Positions 1,033 to 46,880 of a DNA stretch of 60,645 nt are shown here, in pieces. The notes under the pieces were generated by a model. It made no database searches. It had not been told where the DNA came from and saw nothing but the letters and a program-made list of their open reading frames with translations. The stretch's first letter is position 1. Each line of letters begins with the position of its first letter. A program made the translations under genes and the position numbers. This stretch comes from a virus: positions 1 to 60,645 of the IMG/VR virus record IMGVR_UViG_3300028586_000004; one strand, given 5' to 3'.

Positions 1033-1066
1033 GGGGCGGGCGACTAGGTAGCTAGTCGCCCGCCCC
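1033..1066 (-). terminator. 15-bp-stem GC-rich hairpin downstream of 1078..2040
   Basis: GGGGCGGGCGACTAG-gtag-CTAGTCGCCCGCCCC read directly. The apex is a variant of the CTAG palindrome. Confidence 0.7.
1042..1057. repeat. CTAG palindrome copy (GACTAGGTAGCTAGTC, 15/16)
   Basis: Intergenic, 21 nt after the stop of 1078..2040. Forms the tip of the 1033-1066 hairpin. Confidence 0.85.
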
Positions 1067-1077
1067 TGGAGGTGATG

Positions 1078-2040
1078 CTACGGGATGGTGACGGTCGTGG
1101 TGACCGGCTTCCCTGCGCCGTTGTAGGCCCAGATCGTGTACGTGCCGGGTCCGTCGTAGACATGGGTGGTGTCGCCGCCATCACCCAGGACCGCGTCCCA
1201 GGTGAAGTCGCCGAACTCGTACCAGACCTTCTCGTCCGCTCCGGCGTCCGGGAGGACGCTGATCGCCACCGAGTTGCCGGTGCGCGTGGCGGTGACGGAG
1301 GTGAGGCCGACGCCGTTCGTCACGTCCTCGAGGAGCGGGCGAGCGCCGTCGAGGGCCTCGGGCGGCGCCACCTGCACGTTGATCATGCGGAGCGCGACGC
1401 TGTCGGAGATGGGCGAGGTGAGGGGGCCCGCGAAGTCGGGGGCCCCGTTGGGCCCCGCGTTGACCTCGACGTTGTACGGGCCGCGGCCCCACGAGCCGCC
1501 GTTGCGCGTGCTGGCGCCGGTGAGCGTGAAGGTGATCGCCGCGTTGCCGACCTCGAAGTCTCCGAGGATGCCGCCCTGCAGGTACGGCAGGAGCAGGTAG
1601 CCGAAGTTGCCCTGCGTGACCGATCCGGGCTTGCAGGCGTTGCCCGCGGGGGTGCCGGTCCAGAGCTCGAGCGCGAAGCCCGCGTCGTCCAGCTTCACCT
1701 TCGTGTCGATGTCGAGACCGTTGACGCGGCCGAAGGCGTCGTACACGATCGGCATGCCGGTCATCATCGAGAAGAGCTCGGGGTCGACGTCGCAGAAGTT
1801 GAACTCCAGCGAGTAGCCGGCCAGCTGCGCCTCGCCCGCCTCGTAGAGGCAGGTCTCGCCCGAGGCGTTCGTGACGGTGATCTCGTCGGTCTCCGTGGTG
1901 TTGGCCGTGAAGCCGACGGTGACGAAGCCCTTCGTGACCGCGGTCGAGTCGTCGCCGTACACGAACCGGCCACAGCCGTCGAGACGCGTGACGCGCATGC
2001 GACGGCCCTTGACCATCTTGAGGGTGTTGGTCTTGCGCAT
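1078..2040 (-). CDS. major tail protein candidate with C-terminal PKD/Ig-like domain (320 aa)
   Basis: Start moved to ATG 2040 (RBS AGGAGA); the upstream 193 codons of the tracked 513-aa ORF are R/P/S-rich junk overlapping 2072..2491. C-terminal THVYDGPGTYTIWAYN is PKD/Ig-like. Tail tube versus capsid decoration is unresolved. Confidence 0.5.
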   Translation of the reverse strand: MRKTNTLKMVKGRRMRVTRLDGCGRFVYGDDSTAVTKGFVTVGFTANTTETDEITVTNASGETCLYEAGEAQLAGYSLEFNFCDVDPELFSMMTGMPIVYDAFGRVNGLDIDTKVKLDDAGFALELWTGTPAGNACKPGSVTQGNFGYLLLPYLQGGILGDFEVGNAAITFTLTGASTRNGGSWGRGPYNVEVNAGPNGAPDFAGPLTSPISDSVALRMINVQVAPPEALDGARPLLEDVTNGVGLTSVTATRTGNSVAISVLPDAGADEKVWYEFGDFTWDAVLGDGGDTTHVYDGPGTYTIWAYNGAGKPVTTTVTIP

Positions 2041-2071
2041 GGTCTGATTCTCCTGTGCCGGTGGCGGTGAT

Positions 2072-2491
2072 CTAGCGGGTGGCGGGCTTCTTGGCGGCGG
2101 CGGCCTTCGCCTTCGCATCAGCGTCAGCGTCAGCCTTCGCCTTCGCGTCGGCGTCCGCCTTTGCCTTGGCGGTCTCGGCCTCCTTCGCCTCGGTGGCCTT
2201 GCGCTCCTCGGCGGCGGCCGCCTCGGCGGCGGCGGCGGCCTCGGCCTGCTTGTGCTCCTCGGCCTCGTCGGCGGCGCGCTGCGCCTCCTCGCGCTCGGTG
2301 ACCTGGGCCTCGCGCTCCCGCGCGTTCTCCAGGTCGACGGCGTCGATGATCGACTGCGGGACCTGGTAGCCGTCGCGCGTGGCCTTGACCTCGCTGACAT
2401 CCAGCTCCTGCTCGCGCGCGAGCCCGAGCAGCTTCTCGGCGGTGGCCTTGCTGCGGCCGGCGATGAGGCCGTAGCCCTTGGGGATGGACAT
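2072..2491 (-). CDS. HeH/Rho-N-like protein with Ala/Lys/Glu-rich tail (139 aa)
   Basis: N-terminus GRSKATAEKLLGLAREQELDVSEVKATRDGYQVP, followed by an EA/KA low-complexity C-terminus. Tightly packed among capsid-region genes. Confidence 0.5.
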   Translation of the reverse strand: MSIPKGYGLIAGRSKATAEKLLGLAREQELDVSEVKATRDGYQVPQSIIDAVDLENAREREAQVTEREEAQRAADEAEEHKQAEAAAAAEAAAAEERKATEAKEAETAKAKADADAKAKADADADAKAKAAAAKKPATR

Positions 2492-2494
2492 CTG

Positions 2495-3347: not shown

Positions 3348-3359
3348 AGATGGTGGGGA

Positions 3360-14942: not shown

Positions 14943-16480
14943 CGTCGTGCCCACATTCCATTCGTCGGGGTAGGTGCCTTGAGCGGCCCGAGTCTACTCC
15001 AGACCGACGCGCGCCCCGTAGGCCCCGTCGCCATCCGCCCCTTCGGCGCCGCGAGGCTCGCCTCCTCGCTCGTGCCGGCCAGCTCGGTGATGCCCCACAC
15101 GAGCGCATCCACGCGGTTCGGCGATGCACCCTCACCCGGCACCCACGTCAGCTGCTCGTTCTCCAGCTTGTCCAGGCCCGCGTACCGCTTGTGGATCACG
15201 CGTCCCTGCTCGTAGAAGCCGACCGTCGGTTCCGCGCGGATCTGCTTGCCGCGGGAGGCGAACGTCTCGATGAGCCGGACACCCTCGCCCATCTTCTTGC
15301 CGTGCTCGTCGAGCGTCGTGTCGAGCACCTGGCGGACCATGTCGCCGCCGAAGTTCTTCTCGAAGACAATCGCATCCGCGACCCACTTCGCGCGCGCCTT
15401 GAACGCGGCGGTCGCCCACTCGTTCGGCGACATCTTCGCGGTGAGGTCCTCCAGCACCCAGAACACGTCGCCCTTCCGGCCGACCACGATGATGCCGGTC
15501 TCGTCCGAGCGCGCGTTCTTCGTGCCGGCCGGGTCGACCGCGACCACGATGCGGTCCAGGTCCAGGGGCATGTAGTCCTGGTGGATCATCGTCGGATCCC
15601 ACATCGCGCCCTCAACGTCTTCGAGCAGCTCGCCGTGCAGCTCCTGCAGGCCGAGGCGCGTGCCCTCGTACCGCTTGAGCACGGTGCGCGCGAACGACGG
15701 CGCCAGGTTCTCCAGGTTCTCGTACGTCGACGCCCGGACGGCGACCGTGTCCTTCTCCTTGATGAGCTCGCGCATCCACTCGTTCGTCTTCGGCGTGGTG
15801 GTGAGCGCGATCTTCGGGTCGTTGCCCAGTCGCATCCCGAGCAGGAGGTTCGACCAGACGTCGTCGATGGCGGGGTAGTGAGCAGGCTCGTCGCACCAGC
15901 CGGCGCCGTGCTGTGGGCCACGCAAGCGGTCGGGCTCCTCGGCCGAGTAGGTCTGCGCGATGGCCCCGTTCTCGAACGTGACGCGGTGCTTCGACGGCTC
16001 CCACTGGATCTTCTCGCCCGCGTTCATACACACCGACTGCAGGCCCGACTCGCCCTCGATCAGCGTGTCGCGGACGTCGCCGGTGGTGCGAGCGACCAGC
16101 GCCATGCGGGGGGTCTTCTTCGACATGGTCCGCGCCCACTCGGCGCCCGAGCGCGTCTTCCCTGACCCACGGCCCCCGCGGAGCATCCACACGAACCAGT
16201 CGCCCCGCGGCGGCGGCCACTGGTCGGCGCGCGCGTGGGCGTACATGTAGCCCTCGTGCGGCCGGCCGTTGCAGGCGCGGCCCGGCACGCGCGTGTCCCC
16301 CGGACCAGGGAGCGTGCAGTACCAGGCGCGGCGCACGTTCTTCCGCCGCTCCTCCAGTGCTTCGAGCGCGGCGGCCCGGGCCTTCGGCGACCAGTCCTTC
16401 GTCTGCTCGACTAGGTAGCTAGCCTCGGCCTCGCTGATGCTCACGCAGCTCCCCGATCTCCCATGGTCCGTAGGCGGCAC
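14939..16480 (-). CDS. terL: terminase large subunit (513 aa)
   Basis: Walker A GGRGSGKT, followed by the nuclease half. An alternative GTG start at 16444 would shorten the overlap with 16419..16772. Confidence 0.85.
   Translation of the reverse strand: MPPTDHGRSGSCVSISEAEASYLVEQTKDWSPKARAAALEALEERRKNVRRAWYCTLPGPGDTRVPGRACNGRPHEGYMYAHARADQWPPPRGDWFVWMLRGGRGSGKTRSGAEWARTMSKKTPRMALVARTTGDVRDTLIEGESGLQSVCMNAGEKIQWEPSKHRVTFENGAIAQTYSAEEPDRLRGPQHGAGWCDEPAHYPAIDDVWSNLLLGMRLGNDPKIALTTTPKTNEWMRELIKEKDTVAVRASTYENLENLAPSFARTVLKRYEGTRLGLQELHGELLEDVEGAMWDPTMIHQDYMPLDLDRIVVAVDPAGTKNARSDETGIIVVGRKGDVFWVLEDLTAKMSPNEWATAAFKARAKWVADAIVFEKNFGGDMVRQVLDTTLDEHGKKMGEGVRLIETFASRGKQIRAEPTVGFYEQGRVIHKRYAGLDKLENEQLTWVPGEGASPNRVDALVWGITELAGTSEEASLAAPKGRMATGPTGRASVWSRLGPLKAPTPTNGMWARR
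16409..16424. repeat. CTAG palindrome copy (GACTAGGTAGCTAGCC, 14/16)
   Basis: Contains the TAG stop (16419-16421, minus strand) of the RHH gene. Lies inside the 5' end of terL. Confidence 0.7.
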
Positions 16481-16772
16481 CCGGCGGGATGCTGTCGCTG
16501 TAGCGCCGCGTGTCGGCCCGGCGGATCCGCGGCTCGTCCGCCATCATGTCGAACCACGGCAGGCCGAGGTCGCGGCACACGAAGGCCATGATCGCACGGC
16601 GCGCGTAGCCGGACAGCGACATGCCGCGGCGGTCTGCGGCCAGCGCGAGCGCCACCCGCATCGTCAGCGGCATGTTGAGGATGACGCTCTTCCGCTCGGC
16701 GCGCCGCGGCTGCCTCTCGACCATGACGTCCTCGAGGCGCTGTGCCCACTGGCGGTCTGAGAAGTCAGTCAT
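16419..16772 (-). CDS. ribbon-helix-helix domain protein (117 aa)
   Basis: Start ATG 16772 (ATGACTGA overlap with the terS stop). SVILNMPLTMRVALALAADRRGMSLSGYARRAIM is a CopG/Arc-type strand-helix-helix. Confidence 0.5.
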   Translation of the reverse strand: MTDFSDRQWAQRLEDVMVERQPRRAERKSVILNMPLTMRVALALAADRRGMSLSGYARRAIMAFVCRDLGLPWFDMMADEPRIRRADTRRYSDSIPPGAAYGPWEIGELREHQRGRG

Positions 16773-17637
16773 CGGGGTCGCCCTCGACGATGACCGCGTC
16801 CTCGATGTCGCCTTCGATGGGGACGTGCTCGCCTTGCGCGCGCGCGACCATCTCGATGATGCGCGCGAACTCCTCCGTCTTGGGGTCGACGAACTGCAGC
16901 TGCGTGGGGGCGTCGAGGCCGTGCAGCTTGATCGCCCGATCGAGCACGGCAAGGTACTGACGGGATGCCGGCAGCAGCTCCGGGTTCGGCATCTCCTCGT
17001 ACAGCTGCTCGTCGGTCTCCTTGCTCCGGCCTACACGGATCCGCACGGTCGGGTTCATGGCGCTCGGCGCCAGCGCCTGCAGCATCTTCTCCAGGCGCGC
17101 GGTCGACAGGTTCCGCAGCGCCGCCTTGTCCTCCTCGCCGTGCGTCTGCGCGAGCGCGCGCTCGACCGCGGCGCGCGCGTACGCGGGGGACTCGTACTCC
17201 AGTACCTCGGCGATCTCGGCGTACGAGGCGCCCTTGATCTTGAGGCTGACGGCGGCGTTGATGCTGTTCTGATTCAGGCGCTCGATGGCTGCCAGCATCT
17301 TCGGCGAGTCGATGTCGTCCGGCTTCGGCGCCGGCATCGGCTTGTGGATCGGGACGTCGAAGTGGACCACGGTCTTCTTCGGTTCGCCGCGCAGCGTCTC
17401 CTTCGTGAGGTCCCCCACGCTGACGACGTTCGGCGGCAGGTTCGCCTCCTTCACGATCTCCACGAGCTCCTCGTCGCTGACCTCGCGCCAGCCCTGCTTC
17501 TCGAAGGTGACGCGGTCCTCCTCGCTGAGTGCATCCCAGTCGACACGCTCGGCCGGCTCCGCGCCCTGCTCTTCCAGCTTGCGGCGCCCCCGCTCGCGGA
17601 TCCGCTCCACCTGCTCGGGAGTGAACTCGTCGCTCAT
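16765..17637 (-). CDS. terS: terminase small subunit candidate (290 aa)
   Basis: Located upstream of terL. Contains the HTH LKIKGASYAEIAEVLEYESPAYARAAVERAL and has acidic termini. Confidence 0.55.
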   Translation of the reverse strand: MSDEFTPEQVERIRERGRRKLEEQGAEPAERVDWDALSEEDRVTFEKQGWREVSDEELVEIVKEANLPPNVVSVGDLTKETLRGEPKKTVVHFDVPIHKPMPAPKPDDIDSPKMLAAIERLNQNSINAAVSLKIKGASYAEIAEVLEYESPAYARAAVERALAQTHGEEDKAALRNLSTARLEKMLQALAPSAMNPTVRIRVGRSKETDEQLYEEMPNPELLPASRQYLAVLDRAIKLHGLDAPTQLQFVDPKTEEFARIIEMVARAQGEHVPIEGDIEDAVIVEGDPDD

Positions 17638-17780
17638 CGAGCCGCCTTCCGCAGGAGCTCGCGCATGTAGGCGCTGCGATCGCCGTTCGCGTGCTGGTCC
17701 AGCTGCCGGAGCTCGCCCGGGGTGAGCCGCACGATGACGCGCTCCGTCCGGGCCACGGGTCCGTCGGGCGGTCGTACCAT
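17634..17780 (-). CDS. ribbon-helix-helix protein (48 aa)
   Basis: Start ATG 17780 with RBS GAAGGGA. VIVRLTPGELRQLDQHANGDRSAYMRELLR is CopG/Arc-like. First gene of the packaging operon. Confidence 0.55.
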   Translation of the reverse strand: MVRPPDGPVARTERVIVRLTPGELRQLDQHANGDRSAYMRELLRKAAR

Positions 17781-17844: not shown

Positions 17845-18516
17845 ATGGACAACGCACTCATCGCGTTCGAGCCGAACCTCGGCCTGACGCTCAAGCTCAT
17901 CATCGGCGTGGTGATCCCGCTCGCCGTCGGCCTCGTGACCACGCGCGTCACGGCGTCCGGCACGAAGGCGCTGCTCCTCGCGGCGCTCTCCCTCGTGGCC
18001 GGCGTGCTCACGGAGTTCGCCGCGGCCGTCGCGGCGGGTCAGACCTTCGAGCTCTTCGCCAGCCTGGCGGGCGCGCTCACGATCTTCCTGATCGCGGTCG
18101 GCACTCACTACGGCCTCTGGAAGCCGGTCGGCGCCTCGCGCGCGCTGCAGGCGGTCGGCGCCACGGGCCTCCCCGATGTGAACCCGGACTACGACCTCGT
18201 CCCCGGTGGCCCCGACGTGAGGGGTGAGTCCTACAGCACGCCGGCCTCCGCGCCAACGGCACCCAAGGTGGTCCTCTTCGCCGCCAGCCCGCAGGACTCG
18301 ACGAATTACCGGCGCGCGCACGAGCGCACATTCGTGGGCAACCGCGCGCAGACCCTGTCGATCTACAACCTCGACGCCCTCCGCGGTTACTCGATCGATG
18401 AGATCCTGGTGACGCCAATGGCCAACGCGAGCCTGACCGATGCGCAGCGCGCGCAGCTCTACACCTACGCGCGGCTCGGCGGCAGCGAGAATCCGGTGCA
18501 CTACCTCGGCAGCTAG
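17845..18516 (+). CDS. membrane protein, holin-like N-terminus plus ~90-aa C-terminal domain (223 aa)
   Basis: Start ATG 17845 (RBS ACAGGA). Three to four hydrophobic helices. It is the only plus-strand gene inside the minus-strand arm, and its TAG stop lies in a palindrome copy. Confidence 0.65.
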   Translation: MDNALIAFEPNLGLTLKLIIGVVIPLAVGLVTTRVTASGTKALLLAALSLVAGVLTEFAAAVAAGQTFELFASLAGALTIFLIAVGTHYGLWKPVGASRALQAVGATGLPDVNPDYDLVPGGPDVRGESYSTPASAPTAPKVVLFAASPQDSTNYRRAHERTFVGNRAQTLSIYNLDALRGYSIDEILVTPMANASLTDAQRAQLYTYARLGGSENPVHYLGS

Positions 18517-18526
18517 CCAGCTAGTC
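18511..18526. repeat. CTAG palindrome copy (AGCTAGCCAGCTAGTC)
   Basis: Contains the TAG stop of 17845..18516. CAGCTAGTCGCACGG is identical to the copy at 26454. Confidence 0.8.
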
Positions 18527-18534
18527 GCACGGAC

Positions 18535-18569
18535 AAGCGCCCCACTCCACCGGGAGGAGAGGGGCGCTT
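18535..18569 (+). terminator. 9-bp-stem hairpin after palindrome
   Basis: AAGCGCCCC-17 nt-GGGGCGCTT read directly. Confidence 0.55.
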
Positions 18570-18609
18570 CGTTCATCCACGAGCACGAACACCGACACGG
18601 TAGCACGAC

Positions 18610-18762: not shown

Positions 18763-19215
18763 TCACTCCTCCTTCATCATCCCCTGCGCGAGCCCCAGCT
18801 CCCGCAGACGGAGCACGCGCTCCGACGACTTGCCCTTCCACACGAACTCCGGCGACAGCGCCAGCCGGCGCCCCCGGCGGATGATGACGCCGCGCTCGAT
18901 CAGCGACGCCACCACCCCCGACGCGTTCGACGGCTTCATCCCCGTGCCCTCTGCGATGTCCTTGAGGAATACCGGTGAGGACCCGTCGGTCGAGATCGTC
19001 GACATCATGTACGCGACCACGCTCCACTCGCGCCCGGTGAGGCCCGCCTTGGCGAGCTCCCCCCAGGCGGCGAGGAAGACGAGCGCGAACTCCTCCCTAA
19101 ATCGAGTGTCGGCGGCCCGGCGCTTGCGTGCGCCAGCTTCGCCGGTCTCGCGGAGGACGACCTTGTTGCCCGCCTCCTCGATCAGCTCGAACTCGCGGAG
19201 GATCCTGCCCGGCAC
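18763..19215 (-). CDS. winged-helix DNA-binding protein (150 aa)
   Basis: GTG start 19215 (TAGTG overlap). FLKDIAEGTGMKPSNASGVVASLIERGVIIRRGRRLALSPEF is a MarR/wHTH-like motif. Confidence 0.5.
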   Translation of the reverse strand: MPGRILREFELIEEAGNKVVLRETGEAGARKRRAADTRFREEFALVFLAAWGELAKAGLTGREWSVVAYMMSTISTDGSSPVFLKDIAEGTGMKPSNASGVVASLIERGVIIRRGRRLALSPEFVWKGKSSERVLRLRELGLAQGMMKEE

Positions 19216-19712
19216 TAGCCGACGTGGTCGACGATGGCGATGGGCCCGCGCGCTCCGGCGAACTCCCGCACCTGCACCCAGGTGTGGCCCACCTGTCCGT
19301 TGCGCGTCCACCCCAGGCCCGAATCGTGGTACCACCGGGACTTCGCGCTCGTGTCGGTGAGGCCGCCGTGCTCGAAGACGACGTTGTGCGGCGCCTCCTC
19401 GTGCGGCAGGGTCATCAGTGTCGTGCCGATGCCCCACGGACCCGCCTCCTCTGGCATGCGCGGCTCCGCGGGTGCGGGCGCCGAACCCGCGGAGCCGACG
19501 TCGACCAGCCCGAACACGGATCCTTCTGCCGTCAGGTCGACGTCGCGGACCATGAGCTCCCGCTCAGTGCGCTTCGTGATCGTCGCCCCCTCGACGCCGT
19601 CGAGCAGGAAGCCGAACGCGAGAGCCTGCTCCTCGTCCTCCAGGTTCAGGACGATCTGCTTGATGTTGTCGTGCGCCGGCACGACCAGCTGGTAGATGGT
19701 GGACTCAGCCAT
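19215..19712 (-). CDS. hypothetical protein (165 aa)
   Basis: ORF track; unbiased composition; coupled to neighbouring genes. Confidence 0.65.
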   Translation of the reverse strand: MAESTIYQLVVPAHDNIKQIVLNLEDEEQALAFGFLLDGVEGATITKRTERELMVRDVDLTAEGSVFGLVDVGSAGSAPAPAEPRMPEEAGPWGIGTTLMTLPHEEAPHNVVFEHGGLTDTSAKSRWYHDSGLGWTRNGQVGHTWVQVREFAGARGPIAIVDHVG

Positions 19713-19971
19713 TGTGGCTCTCCTCGGTCTCGAGTGGAAAGGGAAGGTGGGCGATCTCGTCGCCCCGGATCCAGTGCGGGGTGCCGCCCTGGAGGAAGGT
19801 CTGCCGCACGTGATGCGGCGGGGTGGACAGCTCGAAGATCTGGAGCGGGTTCCCGGTCTCCCGGATGTGCGCCGCGACCTGGTCGAGGTGCTGGCCGAAG
19901 GTGATGAAGGGCTGACCGAACAGGCCGATCACGAGGATCGGGGAGGCCGGGTCGATCTCCTCGCCGGTCAC
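19705..19971 (-). CDS. hypothetical protein (88 aa)
   Basis: ORF track; 8-nt overlap with the downstream gene. Confidence 0.6.
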   Translation of the reverse strand: MTGEEIDPASPILVIGLFGQPFITFGQHLDQVAAHIRETGNPLQIFELSTPPHHVRQTFLQGGTPHWIRGDEIAHLPFPLETEESHNG

Positions 19972-20288
19972 GATCGCCCCAAGGGGGGTCGCACCATGCC
20001 GGAGTCGCTGTAACGCGCAAAGAGGTCGCGCGCCGCGTGAAGCCGCTTCATAGCGTCGTTATGCTCGCTGCGCACTGCCTCCACGGCCTCGTCTAGCGCG
20101 CGCTCCTCGACCGCCTTAGCGGCCGAGACGACGGCGCCGCGCGCCGCGGCCAGTACCTCAACGAGCTCCGCGAGGTCAGCCACATCTCGGGCCGCCTCAA
20201 TGAAGCTGCGCGCGGGCGGCCGCTCCTGCATGGTGCCGGCGTTCGGGTCCGTGTTTATCTCGCCCGCACGCGGGTCTGGGCGGCTCAT
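19968..20288 (-). CDS. hypothetical helical protein (106 aa)
   Basis: ORF track; ATGA-type overlaps on both sides. Confidence 0.6.
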   Translation of the reverse strand: MSRPDPRAGEINTDPNAGTMQERPPARSFIEAARDVADLAELVEVLAAARGAVVSAAKAVEERALDEAVEAVRSEHNDAMKRLHAARDLFARYSDSGMVRPPLGRS

Positions 20289-25418: not shown

Positions 25419-25544
25419 ATGTTCCGTTTCCTCATCACCACGCTCCGCCGTCTGACGTACTCCACCGCACCGGTCCCGCTGGGGCTGGCTGCTCCGGCTG
25501 TCACCGCGACGCCGGTTCCGCTGCCTGCTCCTCGCGGGCTGTAG
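25419..25544 (+). CDS. possible small protein MFRFLITTLRRL.. (41 aa)
   Basis: ATG has the leader GAAGGGCTCATC, similar to neighbouring genes. Pro/Ala-rich and uncertain. Confidence 0.35.
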   Translation: MFRFLITTLRRLTYSTAPVPLGLAAPAVTATPVPLPAPRGL

Positions 25545-25550
25545 CTTCAC

Positions 25551-25574
25551 CGCACGACCGCACGACCGCACGAC
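25551..25574 (+). repeat. tandem repeat (CGCACGAC)x3
   Basis: Read directly. The same octamer recurs at 34181, 34191, 34249 and 46883. Confidence 0.85.
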
Positions 25575-25639
25575 CTGCATCACCTCCACTCACTCAGCAC
25601 GTCACCACCGCCGATGCGTCGGCAGATCGGATAGGCACC

Positions 25640-26452: not shown

Positions 26453-26462
26453 TCAGCTAGTC
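26447..26462. repeat. CTAG palindrome copy (GCCTAGTCAGCTAGTC)
   Basis: Contains the TAG stop 26450-26452. Confidence 0.75.
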
Positions 26463-26473: not shown

Positions 26474-26506
26474 GCGTCCGGACCTCACCCGAAGGGGTCC
26501 GGGCGC
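26474..26506 (+). terminator. 11-bp-stem hairpin (one G-U) after palindrome
   Basis: GCGTCCGGACC-11 nt-GGTCCGGGCGC. Confidence 0.6.
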
Positions 26507-27217: not shown

Positions 27218-27331
27218 ATGCTCGCCGCCCTCCGCACCATCGCCGTCGTGTGGCTGCTCGCCGCAGCCGCAGCCCTCGGCGCCGCGTTGACCGTGCTGCC
27301 GCACGTGCTCGTCGTCCTCCACCTCATCTGA
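27218..27331 (+). CDS. small transmembrane peptide (37 aa)
   Basis: The leader CAGATCGGA lies 5 nt before the ATG. The TGA stop abuts the palindrome. Confidence 0.5.
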   Translation: MLAALRTIAVVWLLAAAAALGAALTVLPHVLVVLHLI

Positions 27332-27345
27332 CTAGCCAGCTAGTC
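27330..27345. repeat. CTAG palindrome copy (GACTAGCCAGCTAGTC, 15/16)
   Basis: Overlaps the TGA stop at 27329-27331. Confidence 0.85.
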
Positions 27346-27372: not shown

Positions 27373-27783
27373 ATGACCACCACCACCACCGCGCAAGCGG
27401 TCGTCGCCCAGATCCGCGCGTTGACCGCGACCGAACTCTCCCAGATGGGCGACTCCGCATGCGACAACGACGAGGCTGCCGAGCTGTATCTCCGCATCCG
27501 CGACGAGTACGCCGACGTCGTCGAGGAGCTCGGCGACAAGCCCAGCGATGACCGCATCGCGGAGATCGCTGACGCGTCACCGTCGATCTGGATCAGCACG
27601 AAGATGCTCGAGCTCATCGGCACACAGTGCTACCTCGACTCGCCCGACCTCGCCACGGGCAATGAGGACATCCTCACCCTCGCCGGATACGCCCTCTACG
27701 AGATGGCGCAGCTCGTGCTCTACAAGCTGACCGAGCTGCACGACGAGCTCGTCGCCGACGGCGAGACCCCCGACTTCGACTAG
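27373..27783 (+). CDS. hypothetical acidic protein (136 aa)
   Basis: Internal ATG 27373 of the tracked ORF. Leader CAGATCGGA. Starts MTTTTT. Confidence 0.65.
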   Translation: MTTTTTAQAVVAQIRALTATELSQMGDSACDNDEAAELYLRIRDEYADVVEELGDKPSDDRIAEIADASPSIWISTKMLELIGTQCYLDSPDLATGNEDILTLAGYALYEMAQLVLYKLTELHDELVADGETPDFD

Positions 27784-27793
27784 CCAGCTAGCC
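27778..27793. repeat. CTAG palindrome copy (GACTAGCCAGCTAGCC, 14/16)
   Basis: Contains the TAG stop 27781-27783. Confidence 0.8.
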
Positions 27794-27821: not shown

Positions 27822-28199
27822 ATGACCAACACGACACCCCCCAGCGGCGGCACTGCCGACGCGCTCACCGGATGGACGCGCCGGCCGCGCATCGCTACTG
27901 AGCAGGTCGCCCCTCGCCCCCTCGACCAGTACGCGGCCACCGACCCCGCTGTCAACGCGCTCGATGAGCTGCTCAACTTCTTCGGCTACTTCGCGCCGGG
28001 CCGGCCCGAGATCGAGAAGGCGACCGCCACCATCCGCGACGCACTGACCGACCGCATCAAGCTCGACGCGGCCGACGTCCGCGACATCGTGGATTGGTCT
28101 CAGCACGCGGACGCCGTGCTGGCTCTCAATGCAACGGAACGTGCGCTCATCGCCCGCCTCGTCGAGCATGGCGAGTCCACTTCGGAGGCCGGCCGATGA
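27822..28199 (+). CDS. hypothetical protein with duplicated LDELLxFFGYFAPG module (125 aa)
   Basis: ORF track. The segment 27942-28058 is repeated at 35194-35310. Confidence 0.7.
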   Translation: MTNTTPPSGGTADALTGWTRRPRIATEQVAPRPLDQYAATDPAVNALDELLNFFGYFAPGRPEIEKATATIRDALTDRIKLDAADVRDIVDWSQHADAVLALNATERALIARLVEHGESTSEAGR

Positions 28200-28725: not shown

Positions 28726-28741
28726 GACTAGCTAGCTAGTC
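28726..28741. repeat. CTAG palindrome, perfect copy GACTAGCTAGCTAGTC
   Basis: Intergenic, 17 nt before ATG 28759. Confidence 0.95.
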
Positions 28742-30186: not shown

Positions 30187-30536
30187 TGGCGAAGATCAGC
30201 ACGCGGAACATCACCGCGCAGAACGTTGCGGACATTCTCGACACCGCCGGGTACGGCATCGGCGACTTCGCTCGTGAGGCGAAGGTGCACAGCGATCTGT
30301 CGTACACCTTCATCGAGAAGTCCGAGGCGAGCGGTGAGCCGGACAAGGCGCACACCATCACCGCAGCGCAGGTCCGGCAGGCCGTGGTCGACCGCGCCAG
30401 CCAGGGGGACCACCACCTGCGCGAGGCGTTCGTCGACTGGGACCGCGAGAATGGCATCGACACCGGCGAGATCGACAGCGTCGGCGCGAGCGTCATCGTG
30501 CAGCTCGCCGCCTTCGGAGACGTGGTGTACGGATGA
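30186..30536 (+). CDS. hypothetical protein (116 aa)
   Basis: ORF track; TGATG coupling. Confidence 0.65.
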   Translation: MAKISTRNITAQNVADILDTAGYGIGDFAREAKVHSDLSYTFIEKSEASGEPDKAHTITAAQVRQAVVDRASQGDHHLREAFVDWDRENGIDTGEIDSVGASVIVQLAAFGDVVYG

Positions 30537-30778
30537 CCGCCTGCTACGTGGACGAGGACGTCGAGATCGACGTCGCCACCGAAGACGACGACGCGCCATG
30601 GGTCACCGTCTACCTCAACTCCGAAGAGACGACCGGCGACGTGAGCCTCCTGCTCGGCGCGGCCGAGGCGCGCATGCGTGGCGTCGAGCTGATCGTCGCG
30701 GCCGACCGCGCCGAGCAGCGCATCATCCAACTCGAGACCGAGAAGCTGCGCGCTGCCCGCGCTGCCGATCATCCGTGA
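30533..30778 (+). CDS. hypothetical acidic protein (81 aa)
   Basis: ORF track; ATGA overlap. Confidence 0.6.
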   Translation: MTACYVDEDVEIDVATEDDDAPWVTVYLNSEETTGDVSLLLGAAEARMRGVELIVAADRAEQRIIQLETEKLRAARAADHP

Positions 30779-30792
30779 CTAGCCAGCTAGTT
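30777..30792. repeat. CTAG palindrome copy (GACTAGCCAGCTAGTT, 14/16)
   Basis: Overlaps the TGA stop 30776-30778. Confidence 0.8.
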
Positions 30793-30801: not shown

Positions 30802-30825
30802 GGGGCCCGGCACTTGCCGGGCCCC
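30802..30825 (+). terminator. 9-bp-stem GC hairpin after palindrome
   Basis: GGGGCCCGG-cacttg-CCGGGCCCC. Confidence 0.65.
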
Positions 30826-31419: not shown

Positions 31420-31435
31420 GGGTAGAGTGCTACCC
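31420..31435 (+). promoter_or_regulatory. inverted repeat GGGTAG-agtg-CTACCC containing -10-like TAGAGT
   Basis: Read directly, just after the stop at 31415. A weak -35, TTCAAG, lies 16 nt upstream. Confidence 0.4.
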
Positions 31436-32060: not shown

Positions 32061-32317
32061 TGGCCGCGGCGATCCCGTGGAAGCGGATCATACGCGAGCG
32101 CCGCGCGCACCCCGGGCGACAGAAGCTCTACTTCCGCGACAGCCCGCTCTCCATCCACACCACCATCAACAGCCAAGGCGTGCCCGCCCTCCTCACCGAG
32201 GGCGGGCGCCTGGTAGCCACCACCGAGAACCTGTACTACCCGCCCGACAAGCCGCCCCGCTGCGACATCTGGGTACGATGGGACCCAGACCCTACCCCGC
32301 CCGAAGGAGCCCCATGA
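32060..32317 (+). CDS. hypothetical protein (85 aa)
   Basis: ORF track. Confidence 0.5.
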   Translation: MAAAIPWKRIIRERRAHPGRQKLYFRDSPLSIHTTINSQGVPALLTEGGRLVATTENLYYPPDKPPRCDIWVRWDPDPTPPEGAP

Positions 32318-32589
32318 CCGCACGCAGCATGAACATCACGCCCGAGCTGCGGGCCGAACTCACCGAGCGCGCGACGAAGAATGGCACCACGTTCCCGGTC
32401 GAGCTGCGCGACACCATCCGCCGCTACGCGTTCGGGAGGACGACGCCGGCCGCGCCGCGCGGGAAGCCGACGAAGGTGAACATCGCCGTCGAAGACCACG
32501 TGTGGCAGAAGGCGCTCGACCGGGCCGCCGCCGAAGGCACGAAGCTCAGCACCGCCATCAACGCGACCGCGAGGAAGTCCAAGCCATGA
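32314..32589 (+). CDS. tandem ribbon-helix-helix DNA-binding protein (91 aa)
   Basis: ATG 32314 with RBS GAAGGAG. Two strand-helix units: MNITPELRAELTERATKNG and VNIAVEDHVWQKALDRAAAEG. Confidence 0.5.
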   Translation: MTARSMNITPELRAELTERATKNGTTFPVELRDTIRRYAFGRTTPAAPRGKPTKVNIAVEDHVWQKALDRAAAEGTKLSTAINATARKSKP

Positions 32590-33545
32590 CCCAGCACCCC
32601 GTCCGCATCGCCTGGTTGACGAAGTCGATCGGCACCTTCCGCTCGTGGCGCAAGAACAACGCGTTCGGCCACAAGGGCTTCGACTACTACGTCCCGCGCG
32701 GCACGCCGGTCTTCTCGCCCGGCGACGGCGTCGTTGCTGGCATCGGGTCCAACATGGACCGGGACATCGGCTTCGGCCACAATGTGACCATCACCCTCGA
32801 CAACGGGTGGACCGCGCTCAGCGCCCACATGGACCGTGCGCCGCTCGTCAAGAAGGGCCAGCGCGTCAACGCCGGCACTCAGCTCGGCGTCGCCGGAGAC
32901 ACGGGCAACGCCTGGGCCGTCGGCGTGCACGTGCACCACCAGCTCTGGATCTCGAAGTCGCTCGTCAACGAGAACCTCCGCGACCCGCTCAAGTACCACG
33001 CCAACCTCATCCCCGCAGGACTCGACCAGATCGGAATCGACAACACCATGGACCTCTCGAAGCAGAACCTCATCGACATCTTGGGCGCCGCCGTCGACGT
33101 CCCCGGCCACGGCTTCCGCAGCATCGGCGACGGGATCAAGGCGACGTACTTCTACGGCGACTACCTCGCGAAGGCGATCGAGGACCTGCCGAACCGGATC
33201 CTCGCCGCCGGCATCCCCCACCCCATCGCGAAGAACGCGGACGGCACGCCGCTCATGGTGAGCCTCGGCGCCGTCCTGGAGTCCGAGCCGCTCGAGCACC
33301 ACAACACGCGCGTGTTCATGCAGGACGCCCTGCTCAAGCTGCAGACCGGCGAGCTCACGGCCGAGGTTCTGGCCGAGGCGCTCGACAAGCTGGGCCTGGA
33401 CAAGGAGGAGTTCGCGCGCGCCGCGGCGGACGAGTTCGACCGGCGCGAGCGTGAGGCACTGCTGGCGCGGGAGAACGAGCACCCCGCGCAGCGCGCCATC
33501 ACGTCCGCGCCGGGCTCGGACGAGACGCTGCCGCCCACCGCCTGA
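32586..33545 (+). CDS. M23 (LytM-type) peptidase, endolysin candidate (319 aa)
   Basis: HKGFDY (HxxxD motif), GDTGNAWAVGVHVHHQLW (HxH motif). ATGA overlap at the start. Confidence 0.7.
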   Translation: MTQHPVRIAWLTKSIGTFRSWRKNNAFGHKGFDYYVPRGTPVFSPGDGVVAGIGSNMDRDIGFGHNVTITLDNGWTALSAHMDRAPLVKKGQRVNAGTQLGVAGDTGNAWAVGVHVHHQLWISKSLVNENLRDPLKYHANLIPAGLDQIGIDNTMDLSKQNLIDILGAAVDVPGHGFRSIGDGIKATYFYGDYLAKAIEDLPNRILAAGIPHPIAKNADGTPLMVSLGAVLESEPLEHHNTRVFMQDALLKLQTGELTAEVLAEALDKLGLDKEEFARAAADEFDRREREALLARENEHPAQRAITSAPGSDETLPPTA

Positions 33546-33559
33546 CTAGCTAGCTAGTC
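33544..33559. repeat. CTAG palindrome, perfect copy
   Basis: Overlaps the TGA stop 33543-33545. Confidence 0.95.
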
Positions 33560-33563
33560 GCCT

Positions 33564-33593
33564 GACGCCCTCCGCTTTCGAGTGGGGGGCGTC
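33564..33593 (+). terminator. 7-bp-stem hairpin after palindrome
   Basis: GACGCCC-16 nt-GGGCGTC. Confidence 0.4.
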
Positions 33594-33596
33594 GTG

Positions 33597-33618
33597 TTAT
33601 CCACAGCCCTGTCCACAA
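33597..33618 (+). promoter_or_regulatory. paired DnaA boxes TTATCCACA-gccc-TGTCCACA
   Basis: Read directly. The second box fits the actinobacterial TTGTCCACA type in 8 of 9 positions. Confidence 0.55.
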
Positions 33619-34348: not shown

Positions 34349-34364
34349 GGGTAGAGTTCTACCC
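34349..34364 (+). promoter_or_regulatory. inverted repeat GGGTAG-agtt-CTACCC containing -10-like TAGAGT
   Basis: Read directly. The -35 is poor (CGACCA with an 18-nt spacer). Confidence 0.4.
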
Positions 34365-34376: not shown

Positions 34377-34392
34377 TACTAGCTGGCTAGTC
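34377..34392. repeat. CTAG palindrome copy (TACTAGCTGGCTAGTC), inverted orientation
   Basis: The reverse complement reads GACTAGCCAGCTAGTA. It lies in a 5' leader, not at a gene end. Confidence 0.8.
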
Positions 34393-34999: not shown

Positions 35000-35448
35000 G
35001 CGGCCGCATCGACCCGCTCTCCGGGCAGGAGCTGGAGAGCGACGGAACAGTGGCTGGCACCCCGGAGGGCGTCCGCGTCTGGCCGGTCGACGGCGAGTAC
35101 GTGGTGTCGTGGAATCACGTGTGGGTCGAGGGTACGTACCCCACGGTCGAGGCCGCGGTCGCTGCGACACGGGGTGACCAGGCCCCGGCCGCCGACCCCG
35201 CGCTCGACGCGCTCGATGAGCTGCTCGACTTCTTCGGCTACTTCGCGCCGGGTCAGCCCGAGATCGAGAAGGCGACCGCCATCATCCGCGAGGCCCTGGC
35301 CGACCGCATCACCCCCGCCGAGGCGCGCACGCTTCTCGGATGGAGCGACACACTCGCTGACTTCGGAGTGGCGGTGGCGACAGGCCCCGAGCGCGCCCTC
35401 ATCGTCGACCTCGGCCGCATCGCCGACCGCGACGAGGTGACCCGATGA
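34996..35448 (+). CDS. hypothetical protein with duplicated LDELLxFFGYFAPG module (150 aa)
   Basis: GTG 34996 (GTGA overlap). Shares the 117-nt module with 27822..28199. Confidence 0.65.
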   Translation: MSGRIDPLSGQELESDGTVAGTPEGVRVWPVDGEYVVSWNHVWVEGTYPTVEAAVAATRGDQAPAADPALDALDELLDFFGYFAPGQPEIEKATAIIREALADRITPAEARTLLGWSDTLADFGVAVATGPERALIVDLGRIADRDEVTR

Positions 35449-38262: not shown

Positions 38263-38529
38263 ATGGCCTACGCGCGCGCCGCCCTCGTGCGCTGGGCGGG
38301 TGAGAAGATCGAGCTGACCAAGCAGCGCCGCTACGTCCTCATGGCGATCGCCAACCAGGTAGGGCTCGAGCAGCTCGGCACCTACACCACTACGGAGGAG
38401 CTCGTCGCAGCCAGCGGCATCTCCTCCGCGGCGCAGGTGAAGGAGGCGCTGCATCACCTGGACAAGCGCATGATGATCCGGCTGACGTCGAACGGCAACA
38501 ACACCTGGGCCATCAAGCTCCTGCTGTGA
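38263..38529 (+). CDS. winged-helix DNA-binding protein (88 aa)
   Basis: TTTEELVAASGISSAAQVKEALHHLDKRMMIRL is an HTH-plus-wing pattern. Confidence 0.45.
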   Translation: MAYARAALVRWAGEKIELTKQRRYVLMAIANQVGLEQLGTYTTTEELVAASGISSAAQVKEALHHLDKRMMIRLTSNGNNTWAIKLLL

Positions 38530-38720
38530 CCGCCGACGAGCCCACCCTGCCCTCCGACGAAGCGTTCACGTGGTGGCTGTCCAGCCTCGACGCCCAGTCG
38601 GTGCAGGGTGAGCTCGTCGGACAGCCGTCCCACGAAGAGTCCCTCGCGATCAAGCGAGCCATGAACGACAACGCACGTCGCCGCCGAGCCGCCCGGCTGC
38701 GCCGAGAACCCATCGACTAG
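38526..38720 (+). CDS. hypothetical protein with basic C-terminus (64 aa)
   Basis: ORF track. The TAG stop lies inside the palindrome. Confidence 0.55.
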   Translation: MTADEPTLPSDEAFTWWLSSLDAQSVQGELVGQPSHEESLAIKRAMNDNARRRRAARLRREPID

Positions 38721-38730
38721 CTAGCTAGTC
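38715..38730. repeat. CTAG palindrome, perfect copy
   Basis: Contains the TAG stop 38718-38720, 19 nt before ATG 38750. No hairpin follows. Confidence 0.95.
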
Positions 38731-44831: not shown

Positions 44832-45817
44832 GCCTCGGCACGCTGCGCTACGTCGCGCCGCCCGTCCTGCCTGTCGACGTCGAAGGCGAGGAGTGGCCCG
44901 ACCCGCTCGTCGAGCACGGTCGCGCCGTTGGTGACGCCATCATCGGGCTGCTCATCCAGCACGAGAACGACAAGCCGCGCTCCAAGCAGAAGGCACTCGG
45001 CATGTCGTCCCTCGGCGGCTGCCGCGAGTTCATCCGCGCGACCATCGCGGGCGACCCTCGGCAGGACAGCGAGAAGTGGAAGCTGGAGGCCATGGTCGGC
45101 ACCGCCGTCGGCGACTACTTCGAGCAGGCGCTCGAGGCCGGCGACGAGGGTGTGACCGCACAGGCGTTCATCATGGTCGAGTTCAAGTCGGGCCTCCGTG
45201 CCGGTGGATCCGTTGACCTCCTCACGAAGACCAGCGTCATCGACCTCAAGACGCGCGACGGCCTCGGCGACGTGCGCCGTGAGGGTCCGCCGTTCAAGAA
45301 CAAGGCGCAGATCTTCGGCTACCTGCAGGGCGCCATCCAGGAGGGGAAGCTCCCCGCGGACGGCGTCGGCCACCTCGTCTACATCGACCGCTCGGGCAAG
45401 GACAAGACCGTCTACGTCTGGTCACTGCAGGCCGGCACGCCCGAGTACGAGGCCATCGAGCAGGAGCTGATGAACCGGCTCCACGATGTCGCGATGGCGA
45501 TCACGACCGGCAGCTCGCAGGGCTACCTGCGAGACGAGCCGATGCAGTGGTGCAAGCTCGTCGAGTGCCCCTTCCGGGACGCGTGCTGGGCGGGCTACGA
45601 GCCGGAGACCGCGATCACGCACCCGAAGATCATCGAGTCGGTGAAGAAGTACCAGATCGCGCGCGCCGACGCGAAGGACGCCGAGAGCCGGAAGGCCCAC
45701 GCGCGCCAGGAGCTGATCGGCTCCGAGGGCCTCACCCCTGACGGAACGCAGGTCCGATGGGCCACGCGCGCCAACGACAAGGGCACGGTCACGAGCATGC
45801 TGACCGTTCGACCCTGA
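44828..45817 (+). CDS. Cas4/RecB-like PD-(D/E)xK exonuclease (329 aa)
   Basis: An N-terminal Cys (GGCREF), the nuclease motifs VDLL..VIDLKT and QIFGYL, and the C-terminal cluster WCKLVECPFRDAC. Confidence 0.65.
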   Translation: MSLGTLRYVAPPVLPVDVEGEEWPDPLVEHGRAVGDAIIGLLIQHENDKPRSKQKALGMSSLGGCREFIRATIAGDPRQDSEKWKLEAMVGTAVGDYFEQALEAGDEGVTAQAFIMVEFKSGLRAGGSVDLLTKTSVIDLKTRDGLGDVRREGPPFKNKAQIFGYLQGAIQEGKLPADGVGHLVYIDRSGKDKTVYVWSLQAGTPEYEAIEQELMNRLHDVAMAITTGSSQGYLRDEPMQWCKLVECPFRDACWAGYEPETAITHPKIIESVKKYQIARADAKDAESRKAHARQELIGSEGLTPDGTQVRWATRANDKGTVTSMLTVRP

Positions 45818-45882
45818 CCCCACAGACCAGGCAGCCCGCCTTCCAACAGGGCATCCATCACCACCCACAAGAAGGAGCCATC

Positions 45883-46248
45883 ATGGCCCGCAACACCGGC
45901 ACCACCCCGACCGACATCGCCGAGGACCAGACGGAGACGTTCGCCGAGGACATCACCCCCGTCGAGACCGCCGAGGAGAAGCTCGCGCGCCTCCGCGGCA
46001 GCTTCGTCAAGGCGCCCGTCGCCGAGGTCGAGGTCAACCCCGCCGACGCCGCTCGCGACGAGAAGATCGCCGACCTGGAGAACCGCTTCGAGCTGTTCTT
46101 CACGAGCCTCGACGGCATCACGGCGTACGCCAGCGCCGACGCCAAGGTGAAGATGTTCACGTCGCTCGCGACCACGAAGTCGCGGGCGCTCACGGTCATC
46201 AACGGCCTCACGGACCAGCAGCTCCTCACGGCGCCGACGGAGTCCTGA
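45883..46248 (+). CDS. hypothetical acidic protein (121 aa)
   Basis: ATG 45883 with RBS GAAGGAG. Confidence 0.65.
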   Translation: MARNTGTTPTDIAEDQTETFAEDITPVETAEEKLARLRGSFVKAPVAEVEVNPADAARDEKIADLENRFELFFTSLDGITAYASADAKVKMFTSLATTKSRALTVINGLTDQQLLTAPTES

Positions 46249-46445
46249 TGGCCCTGTCCGCCGCCGCGATCCCCAACCCGGAGCAGAAGCAGGCCCTGGC
46301 GCAGCTGCTCGCCAAGGCCAGCGAATTCGAGGAAGCCATCCTCGCACTGCTGCCCGCCGGCCGGGATCGCTCGCTCGCGATCACGCACCTCGAGGACTCG
46401 CTCATGCGAGCGAACCGCGCGGTGTTCCAGCCCCCGGTCGACTGA
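46248..46445 (+). CDS. hypothetical protein (65 aa)
   Basis: ORF track; TGATG coupling. Confidence 0.6.
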   Translation: MALSAAAIPNPEQKQALAQLLAKASEFEEAILALLPAGRDRSLAITHLEDSLMRANRAVFQPPVD

Positions 46446-46870
46446 TGGGGTTCGAGAAGTTCGTCCGCGGAAGGAAGGGGTACGCCATGCCAACGACACC
46501 CAGCCTCCGGGTCAGCAAGAACGGATCCGGCCGCTCGGGCTCCTCGACCCTGTTCCGGCTCTCGCCGGCAGCCATGGAGCACCTCGGCAGCCCCAGGTAC
46601 GTGCTGATCTGGTTCGACCGCGTGCGCAAGATGCTCGCGATCGACCCGCTCGACCAGCGGGCGCCAGGCGCCTACACACTGCAGCACTTCGACTCCGGCC
46701 AGGGCACCTTCCAGGCCCCGGTCCTGTCGGCGCAGTTCGACGTGAAGGTGCCCATGCTGGCGGCGTACGAGCTTCCCGCTGAGCTCGGCGACGAGCGGCG
46801 ACTACTGGTCGCGATCCAGGATCTGCTCGTTGGAGAAGAGCGCCTGCGTTCCGCAGTGAACAACGACTAG
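46445..46870 (+). CDS. hypothetical protein, last rightward gene (141 aa)
   Basis: ORF track. The TAG stop lies inside the palindrome. Confidence 0.6.
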   Translation: MGFEKFVRGRKGYAMPTTPSLRVSKNGSGRSGSSTLFRLSPAAMEHLGSPRYVLIWFDRVRKMLAIDPLDQRAPGAYTLQHFDSGQGTFQAPVLSAQFDVKVPMLAAYELPAELGDERRLLVAIQDLLVGEERLRSAVNND

Positions 46871-46880
46871 CTAGCTAGTC
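46865..46880. repeat. CTAG palindrome, perfect copy
   Basis: Contains the TAG stop 46868-46870. Confidence 0.95.

Follow-up and report, generated by a model that had tools for sequence, protein, structure and literature searches.

Why should one short palindrome recur a dozen times along a phage genome, mostly where a gene ends? The question is raised by the IMG/VR virus record IMGVR_UViG_3300028586_000004, of which positions 1 to 60,645 were analyzed (hereafter the window, the whole stretch of 60,645 bp) and in which a 16-bp inverted repeat built on the unit GACTAG-N4-CTAGTC occurs twelve times. The window carries a 127-bp terminal direct repeat (1-127 and 60519-60645) and is therefore a complete, circularly assembled unit of 60,518 bp, with a G+C content of 69%. 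On comparative sequence evidence, we lean toward the view that the twelve copies are a multi-copy operator private to this phage, which would be read by a phage-encoded, dimeric DNA-binding protein.

A palindrome with constant arms and a variable center

The perfect 16-mer, GACTAGCTAGCTAGTC, is found at 28726, 33544, 38715, and 46865, as reported in an initial annotation made from the sequence alone, and it was never generated in 100 dinucleotide-preserving shuffles. The total of twelve copies given there also exceeds chance, since a search allowing up to three mismatches returns exactly 12 sites, against 0.10 expected, and the core CTAG-N4-CTAG likewise occurs exactly 12 times, against 0.10 expected. 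The tetranucleotide CTAG is depleted genome-wide (57 occurrences versus 86 expected from trinucleotides), and 28 of these 57 lie in the 12 sites.

The conserved unit is often extended to C...G. Its arms are constant and its center is variable (GACTAGC-NN-GCTAGTC, with the window consensus GACTAGCNNGCTAGTC), positions 7-10 reading CTAG and CCAG in four copies each, GTAG in two, TCAG in one, and CTGG in one. Read on the coding strand, the center is biased, with YCAG in five copies versus CTGG in one. What is kept in the arms is the sequence itself, beyond mere complementarity, and there are no compensatory pairs. Folded as a hairpin, the motif alone would form a stem of 6 bp (-2 to -5.6 kcal/mol) without a T-run, and we rejected it as an intrinsic terminator, the strong hairpins described below being separate elements beside six of the copies.

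The initial annotation had defined the motif by a stop codon in all six reading frames. This is true of the four perfect copies but not of the other eight, in which positions 7-10 vary: copies 1042, 16409, and 26447 have stops in three frames of one strand, and the remaining five have stops in two frames per strand.

Extended by its two flanking bases to an 18-mer, the motif has no match in 185,579 species genomes; the 16-mer has 18 matches there, each single and unrelated, and one match in IMG/VR. Exact and degenerate scans of IMG/VR and of metagenomes gave mostly single matches that occur by chance. A host regulator with sites of its own in host genomes was rejected as the reader of the motif on these grounds. 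The literature yielded nothing relevant for the motif sequence as a string. The sequence is new, and the initial statement that no such family had been described is right to that extent; it is wrong as to kind, since multi-copy intergenic inverted repeats of actinobacteriophages are already described in clusters EG and O (PMC7302621, PMC4351075).

The copies sit at gene junctions

Genes were assigned by third-position G+C content (GC3) and by homology to annotated relatives, which gave 87 calls. Measured against these, the tightest positional association of the motif is with an upstream stop codon. Nine of the 12 copies overlap or abut the stop of a real gene, which agrees with the initial count: six hold a TAG stop inside their first CTAG (16409, 18511, 26447, 27778, 38715, and 46865) and three touch a TGA (27330, 30777, and 33544), while the other three (1042, 28726, and 34377) are intergenic and free of any stop overlap. 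Gene bodies contain no copy apart from the one in the overlap between terL and a gene for a ribbon-helix-helix (RHH) protein, also as first described. Nine copies fall within the non-structural operon on the plus strand (25640-46870, 21 kb), and of the other three, one is at the junction of a holin-like gene with a winged helix-turn-helix (wHTH) gene, one is in the overlap of the RHH gene with terL, and one follows the gene for the major tail protein. Five copies (27330, 27778, 28726, 34377, and 38715) are followed by a start codon 17-40 nt downstream, most with a visible ribosome-binding site, and from copy 1042, which belongs to the structural operon, the distance to the next start is 33 nt. 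Strong GC-rich hairpins are found 0-21 nt from copies 18511, 26447, 30777, 33544, and 46865, and copy 1042 is inside such a hairpin. The twelve copies, with the strand of the adjoining genes, are as follows.

1042-1057: GACTAGGTAGCTAGTC, between the genes for the major tail protein (1078-2040, minus strand) and the head-tail adaptor (224-1009, minus strand); center of a hairpin with a 17-bp stem (1031-1068)
16409-16424: GACTAGGTAGCTAGCC, holds the TAG stop of RHH gene 16419-16772 (minus strand) and covers codons 7-12 of terL
18511-18526: AGCTAGCCAGCTAGTC, holds the TAG stop of the holin-like gene (plus strand, ending at 18516); followed by hairpin 18531-18574, where this gene and the wHTH gene converge
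26447-26462: GCCTAGTCAGCTAGTC, holds the TAG that ends the first early gene, 25640-26452 (plus strand); followed by hairpin 26474-26506
27330-27345: GACTAGCCAGCTAGTC, overlaps the TGA (27329-27331) of a small membrane-protein gene; ATG at 27373, 27 nt downstream
27778-27793: GACTAGCCAGCTAGCC, holds the TAG stop of gene 27373-27783; ATG at 27822, 28 nt downstream
28726-28741: perfect copy, intergenic; the upstream gene ends at 28678; ATG at 28759, 17 nt downstream
30777-30792: GACTAGCCAGCTAGTT, overlaps the TGA of gene 30533-30778; followed by hairpin 30802-30825
33544-33559: perfect copy, overlaps the TGA of the M23 peptidase/endolysin gene 32586-33545; followed by hairpin 33560-33597
34377-34392: TACTAGCTGGCTAGTC, in a long non-coding stretch, 28 nt past a GGGTAGAGTTCTACCC palindrome (34349-34364); likely next ATG at 34433
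38715-38730: perfect copy, holds the TAG stop of gene 38526-38720; ATG at 38750, 19 nt downstream
46865-46880: perfect copy, holds the TAG stop of 46445-46870, the gene that closes the plus-strand operon; followed by a hairpin with a 17-bp stem (46884-46927), at the convergent junction with the tail genes

The RHH/terL overlap that contains copy 16409 is 26 nt long, and the same gene calls are made on identical contigs. The terL frame remains open through this copy because the center reads TAC, and not TAG, on the coding strand. Identical or near-identical contigs are present in several JGI, ENA, and Logan samples (L254-L257).

No copy contains a TANNNT hexamer and none has a consensus promoter, for which reason we rejected a promoter function. 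A role in suppression or recoding of TAG was also rejected, there being no tRNA genes in the window. Over the 87 called genes, 57 end in TGA, 26 in TAG, and 4 in TAA; TAG terminates about 16 of some 30 structural genes versus 7 of some 47 early genes on the plus strand.

In a close relative the center has changed in every copy

The closest comparison is provided by L251, a 62.5-kb JGI contig (Ga0540639_0000096) that was found through its small RHH protein, 98% identical to that of the window, and was compared over 20 kb, at about 82% nucleotide identity. It contains seven copies, some at the junctions orthologous to 16409, 18511, and 26447 and the others at additional junctions between early genes. 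Each of the seven has the form GACTAG-GTAC/GTGC-CTAGTC (GACTAGGTACCTAGTC), and none has the central TAG. This shows that the arms are under selection, that the center changes in concert, and that the six-frame stop is not what is selected. A concerted change of this sort is expected if the sites follow a binder.

Sites have also been gained and lost between the two genomes, a full site in L251 corresponding to a single CTAG in the window, at 26945, and the two phages have different early cassettes between their sites. One block of homology, at 18885-19114 on the reverse complement of L251 (L251rc), is flanked on both sides by motif copies, beyond which the cassettes are non-homologous. These features bear on one explanation raised initially, in which the 16-mers are boundary sequences for module exchange by the Rad52-like annealase of the phage; they would provide short homologies to this annealase and to an exonuclease. 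The window indeed encodes a single-stranded DNA-binding protein (SSB), a Rad52-like recombinase, and an exonuclease, and the homology block does end exactly at two copies. It is a single case, however, and mosaic joints in phages fall at gene boundaries generally. Moreover, 16 bp is short for efficient annealing, and palindromes that differ between lineages, as described below, would prevent rather than promote exchange between them. The authors who described the cluster O repeats found few, if any, at rearrangement joints (PMC4351075). We consider exchange at the motif improbable.

Related phages carry palindromes of their own

A near-identity DNA search of GenBank phages returned no close relative of the window, and a search for related loci with the tail protein alone returned no relatives. 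At the protein level, there is distant synteny with the Microbacterium phages of cluster EG, with Curtobacterium phages Kithara and Sunfish, and with Arthrobacter phages such as MellowYellow. With Hyperion (cluster EG) and Kithara, amino acid identity is 27-55% for the products of the terL, portal, capsid, major tail, and other tail genes and about 70% for SSB. In Hyperion, the genes for terL, portal, capsid, major tail protein, tape measure, and minor tail proteins are in the same order (27-47% identity), with terL at 43%, the capsid at 39%, and the major tail protein at 43%; the recombinase and exonuclease are also common to the two phages, alongside the SSB (72%).

The phages of cluster EG, which are reported to be lytic, have an 18-bp inverted repeat, GATCAACCNNGGTTGATC, that occurs 8-10 times in short gaps between genes, at 14-22 bp before start codons, and that has been likened to the 17-bp repeat of cluster O mycobacteriophages (PMC7302621). 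We confirmed the GATCAACCNNGGTTGATC sites in the Hyperion genome. There is no GATCAACCNNGGTTGATC in the window and no CTAG-N4-CTAG in Hyperion; the window element is therefore a variant and not the same repeat. A de novo palindrome scan gave the following for other relatives.

Kithara: GTTCAGTGCACTGAAC, 15 copies
Sunfish: cGTCTAGC-S-GCTAGACg, 9 copies
MellowYellow: CTGCCGGT-NN-ACCGGCAG, about 30 copies
IMG/VR terL relatives: a palindrome of their own, with at least three copies, in 21 of 80 loci

The palindromes of Kithara and MellowYellow adjoin the ribosome-binding site, and the Sunfish half-site GTCTAGC is one base away from the GACTAGC of the window. These phages thus share a genome architecture in which each has a private palindrome of 15-24 bp, and the window motif is one allele. 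Copies in relatives keep to gene boundaries, at orthologous junctions in L251 and, in the other relatives, as intergenic palindromes of their own.

CTAG-based sites have arisen or spread outside the window's lineage. Three distant sets of uncultivated phage contigs with 55-62% GC, L119/L041 (IMGVR_UViG_3300027832_000038; L119 is Ga0209491_10001672), L069 with L011, and L035 with L080 (sample 3300025000), have 5-10 boxes of the form CTAG-N4-CTAGTC in every 10-13 kb, some of them arranged as tandem triplets of 8-bp boxes, and in L119 the boxes come after the homologues of the capsid and major tail protein genes. Over the parts of these contigs that were compared, they have structural proteins only, or nothing, in common with the window. 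Another contig, L089, was dropped because its two sites belong to one long inverted duplication.

Two metagenomic relatives, L202 (1295 and 1703) and L219 (3919 and 4306), have a palindrome of their own, cgTTTAGTnACTAAAcg, directly upstream of paralogous small RHH genes, which hints at autoregulation of these genes in the two lineages.

The comparison also bears on the first explanation offered initially, that the motif is a translational insulator between gene cassettes. Selected for its six-frame stops in a genome of 69% G+C with few out-of-frame stops, it would end any ribosome at cassette boundaries, whatever the frame or strand. In favor of this, spurious open reading frames (ORFs) of some length abound in the window, where 465 reach 40 aa or more, the six-frame stop is real in the four perfect copies, and a genuine stop codon is provided or touched by nine copies. 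Yet the property is confined to these 4 of 12 copies and is found in none of the seven in L251; the palindromes of Hyperion, Kithara, and MellowYellow have at most one stop per strand, and the preserved GACTAG...CTAGTC includes bases that are irrelevant to stops. We regard an insulator as very improbable. The six-frame stop does not appear to be a selected property and looks like a by-product, stop codons occurring in the motif because a CTAG-rich site is squeezed into very short intergenic gaps.

A role in RNA has to be weighed as well, with the motif as a transcribed stem-loop that would be recognized by an RNA-binding protein or nuclease and serve in processing, stabilization, translational control, or terminator tuning. 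The copies are always in transcribed junctions, directly past stops and 17-40 nt ahead of starts, and the palindromes of Kithara and MellowYellow are next to ribosome-binding sites; six window copies are 0-21 nt before strong hairpins or inside one (1042), the center has a strand bias, and copies 16409, 18511, and 30777 keep their pairing through G-U on the transcribed strand. However, the stem is short and weak, a pair is broken in copies 26447, 27778, and 34377 with no compensatory double changes, and L119 conserves the 3' flank only, which leaves a stem of 4 bp. There is no Rfam 15 match at gathering score within the window. Perfect dyad symmetry together with a conserved arm sequence is what a DNA-binding dimer, and not a hairpin, would need. 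An RNA-level role thus seems unlikely to us.

Candidate binding proteins

Since the palindrome differs from lineage to lineage within a shared architecture, the factor that reads it is likely to be encoded by the phage and to co-evolve with its sites; the absence of sites from cellular genomes argues against a host regulator. Three families of DNA-binding proteins are conserved across the complete genomes, represented in the window by the following genes.

18763-19215, minus strand: MarR-like winged-helix protein of 150 aa, with the recognition helix at aa 95-107 and the wing at aa 111-120
17634-17780, minus strand: small RHH protein of 48 aa (RHH48), encoded by the first gene of the structural operon
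16419-16772, minus strand: terL-adjacent RHH protein of 117 aa, which in relatives too is conserved alongside the terminase genes

The initial annotation had named RHH and wHTH proteins as candidates, and our comparison favors the wHTH protein 18763-19215 over the RHH proteins. We tentatively regard it as the best candidate for the cognate binder, while the chance that it is the right one is well short of even. It matches Pfam MarR_2 (E=1.1e-5), and a single-sequence AF2 model predicts a wHTH core (pLDDT 80-90) for which all top Foldseek matches belong to the MarR family, whose dimers bind palindromes of such size. Clear homologues are found in L251, Kithara (gp1), Sunfish (gp13), and several metagenomic relatives, and Hyperion gp11 and MellowYellow gp89 resemble it weakly by pairwise alignment. 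The recognition helix is distinct in each lineage. Within the EG clade, Hyperion and OneinaGillian, which share a palindrome, have similar gp11 helices, and L245, which has another palindrome, has a diverged one. Between the window and L251, the folded core of the protein differs at six positions, five of which (K94A, P95A, I106V, E107A, and R117H) belong to the recognition helix and wing. Copy 18511 lies 237 bp past the stop of the wHTH gene.

An operator read by RHH48 is the alternative, with one dimer on each of the two CTAG boxes, which are spaced by 8 bp, a geometry like that of MetJ on met boxes. CTAG is itself palindromic, and in L119 and L089 the boxes are repeated in tandem, two or three times, as 8-bp units. 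A member of the family, whose profile matches solved RHH proteins, is encoded at the start of the structural operon not only in the window but also in Hyperion (gp13), Kithara (gp15), Sunfish (gp16), and MellowYellow (gp10), and the DNA-facing strand residues vary between lineages. In places they do so along with the palindrome: L220 and L225 both have YLRVR, with palindromes CCCAAAC and CCCGAAC, and L202 and L210 both have V-S-R, with TTTAGT. Against this, the L202 and L219 matches are not positional orthologues, the strands of Sunfish gp16 (SEVISIRAT) and MellowYellow gp10 (SEVISTRVT) are alike although the palindromes are unrelated (GTCTAGC and GCCGGT), and those of the window and L251 are identical although the center changed in every copy. 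This mixed evidence weakens the case for RHH48, which we consider quite unlikely to be the binder. A tblastn search of phages with the 48-aa protein gave no match.

The 117-aa RHH protein is an unlikely binder because its strand (ISRVGF) is common to Hyperion and L245, the palindromes of which are different.

Gene 27373-27783 encodes an acidic orphan protein of 136 aa and has a motif copy on each flank. Its only homologue among GenBank phages is Sunfish gp107 (45% identity), annotated as "DNA binding protein," and Sunfish has the half-site closest to that of the window. We nevertheless set this protein aside as a binder, since it is acidic, has no family match, and gives a low-confidence model that is all-helical. 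Searches for homologues of the RHH protein, the endolysin, and the product of 27373-27783 reached no further than the phage itself, a single close relative, or an integrative element that is unrelated.

Just before the endolysin gene, 32278-32589 encodes a protein of 103 aa without a family match, in which two tandem RHH-like units seem to be present. It is possibly a single-chain pseudo-dimer.

A proposed private operator and the points against it

We propose that GACTAG-N4-CTAGTC is a symmetric site in double-stranded DNA for a phage-encoded dimer, which would most likely be the MarR-like wHTH protein 18763-19215. Dimers bound at gene junctions might act as roadblocks or otherwise modulate transcription, for example in the shut-off of early genes. 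The location of the sites at gene 3' ends in long operons, half of them beside terminator-like hairpins, fits a roadblock or a modulator of read-through, comparable to stoperators or KorB, which would shut off or partition early transcription. Selection could favor a private specificity, by which a co-infecting relative would be unable to regulate the phage, and each lineage would come to have a new palindrome. Both the diversification between lineages and the concerted change between the window and L251 are expected if cross-regulation between co-infecting relatives is costly.

Several points weigh against this proposal. No copy is at a recognizable sigma-70-type promoter, so classical operator logic does not apply, an impasse that the authors on cluster O also faced (PMC4351075). 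The six copies beside terminator-like hairpins and the strand bias of the center could each point to a function in RNA. A scan of about 50 proteins, which was not exhaustive, detected neither an integrase nor a repressor family, so that lysogenic silencing of the stoperator kind lacks an obvious setting. As for the wHTH protein, the clustering of its differences from L251 in the recognition helix and wing was recognized post hoc, and over the whole protein it amounts to 5 of 14 differences in 19% of the residues (5 versus 2.7 expected), a modest enrichment. The wHTH family goes undetected by HMM in Hyperion and MellowYellow. Finally, L172 and L171 have one palindrome and yet recognition helices that differ at several positions.

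Comparison with known systems

The nearest likeness is to the repeats of cluster EG (Hyperion, Squash, and OneinaGillian; Jacobs-Sera et al. 2020, PMC7302621), phages that belong by synteny to the same group as the window. Both elements have short inverted arms around a variable center of 2 bp, number about 10-12 copies per genome, and lie largely in very short intergenic gaps of the non-structural arm, where the upstream stop often touches the repeat. They differ in sequence (GATCAACCNNGGTTGATC versus GACTAGCNNGCTAGTC). The EG copies are 14-22 bp before starts, as compared with 5 of 12 window copies 17-40 nt before starts of the early operon, and, unlike in the EG description, six window copies are beside terminator-like hairpins and three are outside the early arm.

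The cluster O mycobacteriophages contain a 17-bp inverted repeat, TGTTCGGNNNCCGAACA, for which a dimeric DNA-binding protein was predicted and most sites of which are not at promoters (Cresawn et al. 2015, PMC4351075). Like the window motif, it is multi-copy and dyad-symmetric, has invariant arms and a variable center, lies mostly off promoters, and occurs in phages without an integrase. Cluster O is, however, an unrelated lineage; its copies number more than 30, and roughly a third fall within coding sequence, a placement that the CTAG-rich motif of the window cannot tolerate.

Stoperators are many copies of a short site in the intergenic gaps along operons, where binding blocks elongation and not initiation, and their consensus and binder diverge together between subclusters. 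Those of the cluster A mycobacteriophages (L5 repressor gp71) are credited to Brown et al. 1997, as cited in PMC4351075. Whereas stoperators are 13 bp long, asymmetric, and orientation-dependent, the window site is palindromic with only a weak central bias, and whereas stoperators serve lysogenic silencing by an identified repressor, the limited scan mentioned above found no such gene in the window. Another initial suggestion, a site for a dimeric regulator analogous to stoperators, is the one best supported by the comparative data, although the analogy falters on the symmetry of the site and the lack of a repressor or integrase among the proteins scanned.

Operator OB of KorB on plasmid RK2, TTTTAGCGGCTAAAA (PMC11790492), is also a short palindrome with many copies over one replicon, bound by one global repressor, and its inner core, TAGC-S-GCTA, is that of the Sunfish palindrome. 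KorB is a ParB-family, CTP-dependent clamp in a plasmid setting, unlike the window phage, and at the position occupied by a ParB-like gene in Kithara, Sunfish, and MellowYellow, such a gene is absent from the window. The SlyA operator, TTAGCAAGCTAA (PMC5797941), is a palindrome for a winged-helix homodimer, and its inner 10 bp, TAGC-NN-GCTA, are as in the window motif, a resemblance that may be due to chance. Cellular MarR proteins usually have one or a few promoter sites, in contrast to the dozen gene junctions of the window.

Genome layout and other repeats

The structural operon is on the minus strand, running from 17780 through the window start and continuing to 46963, with genes for the small RHH protein, a TerS-like protein, the RHH protein, terL, portal, a MuF-like protein, capsid, major tail protein, adaptor, and tail proteins, in that order. 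A second minus-strand block extends from 25737 to 18763 and has the winged-helix gene as its last gene. The plus-strand operon contains many small orphan genes in addition to the M23 endolysin, SSB, Rad52-like recombinase, and exonuclease genes. A 149-nt direct repeat with 87% identity (27924-28072 and 35176-35324) is a duplicated gene segment in this operon.

Between the divergent minus-strand block and the plus-strand early operon lies a 1-kb stretch without a convincing gene (24590-25640), with isolated CTAGs at 25124, 25149, 25190, and 25255 and a promoter-like site; it is probably an early control region or origin. The only good sigma-70-like promoter match that we saw, TTGACG-N18-TAGCTT at 24996, is in this non-coding region and comes with a different palindrome. 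This second family, GGGTAGA-N2/3-TCTACCC, has three copies (25002-25017, 31420-31435, and 34349-34364), of which the first sits between the hexamers of the promoter match and the second in the gap between 31415 and 31464. It could be the operator of a second regulator at early promoters.

The leaders of early genes at 26950, 27797, and 31613, and also at 18890-20120 of L251rc, consist of CACCTCACC, then cAGAyMGGAc, then the ATG. The CACCTC that they contain is like the anti-Shine-Dalgarno end of 16S rRNA and unlike a Shine-Dalgarno sequence. In L251, a leader of the CACCTCACC type comes after the CTAG palindrome.

Implications

Multi-copy intergenic palindromes have been noted in several clusters of actinobacteriophages over a decade, without an assigned function or binder. 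The window adds an unusually clean new allele and shows that the trait spans a large and diverse group of phages, with a palindrome of its own in each lineage. The pair formed by the window and L251, in which the center has changed in every copy, offers a direct route toward function. If a binder and its effect were established, the timing or insulation of the long early operons in these lytic phages would be explained, and a form of competition between phages by means of private operator codes might come to light.

A broader reading, which we put forward as speculation and hold to be rather unlikely, is that a supergroup of lytic actinobacteriophages, in which EG-like phages from Microbacterium, Curtobacterium, and Arthrobacter would be joined by many uncultivated relatives, might carry a fast-evolving identity code, in which private palindromes of 15-24 bp at a dozen or more gene junctions and a co-evolving MarR-like winged-helix dimer would act as a trans-acting switch to silence early genes. 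Lineages would diversify the pair to escape silencing by co-infecting relatives. If true, such a code would amount to the evolution of immunity groups without lysogeny, with the CTAG version of the window as one allele.

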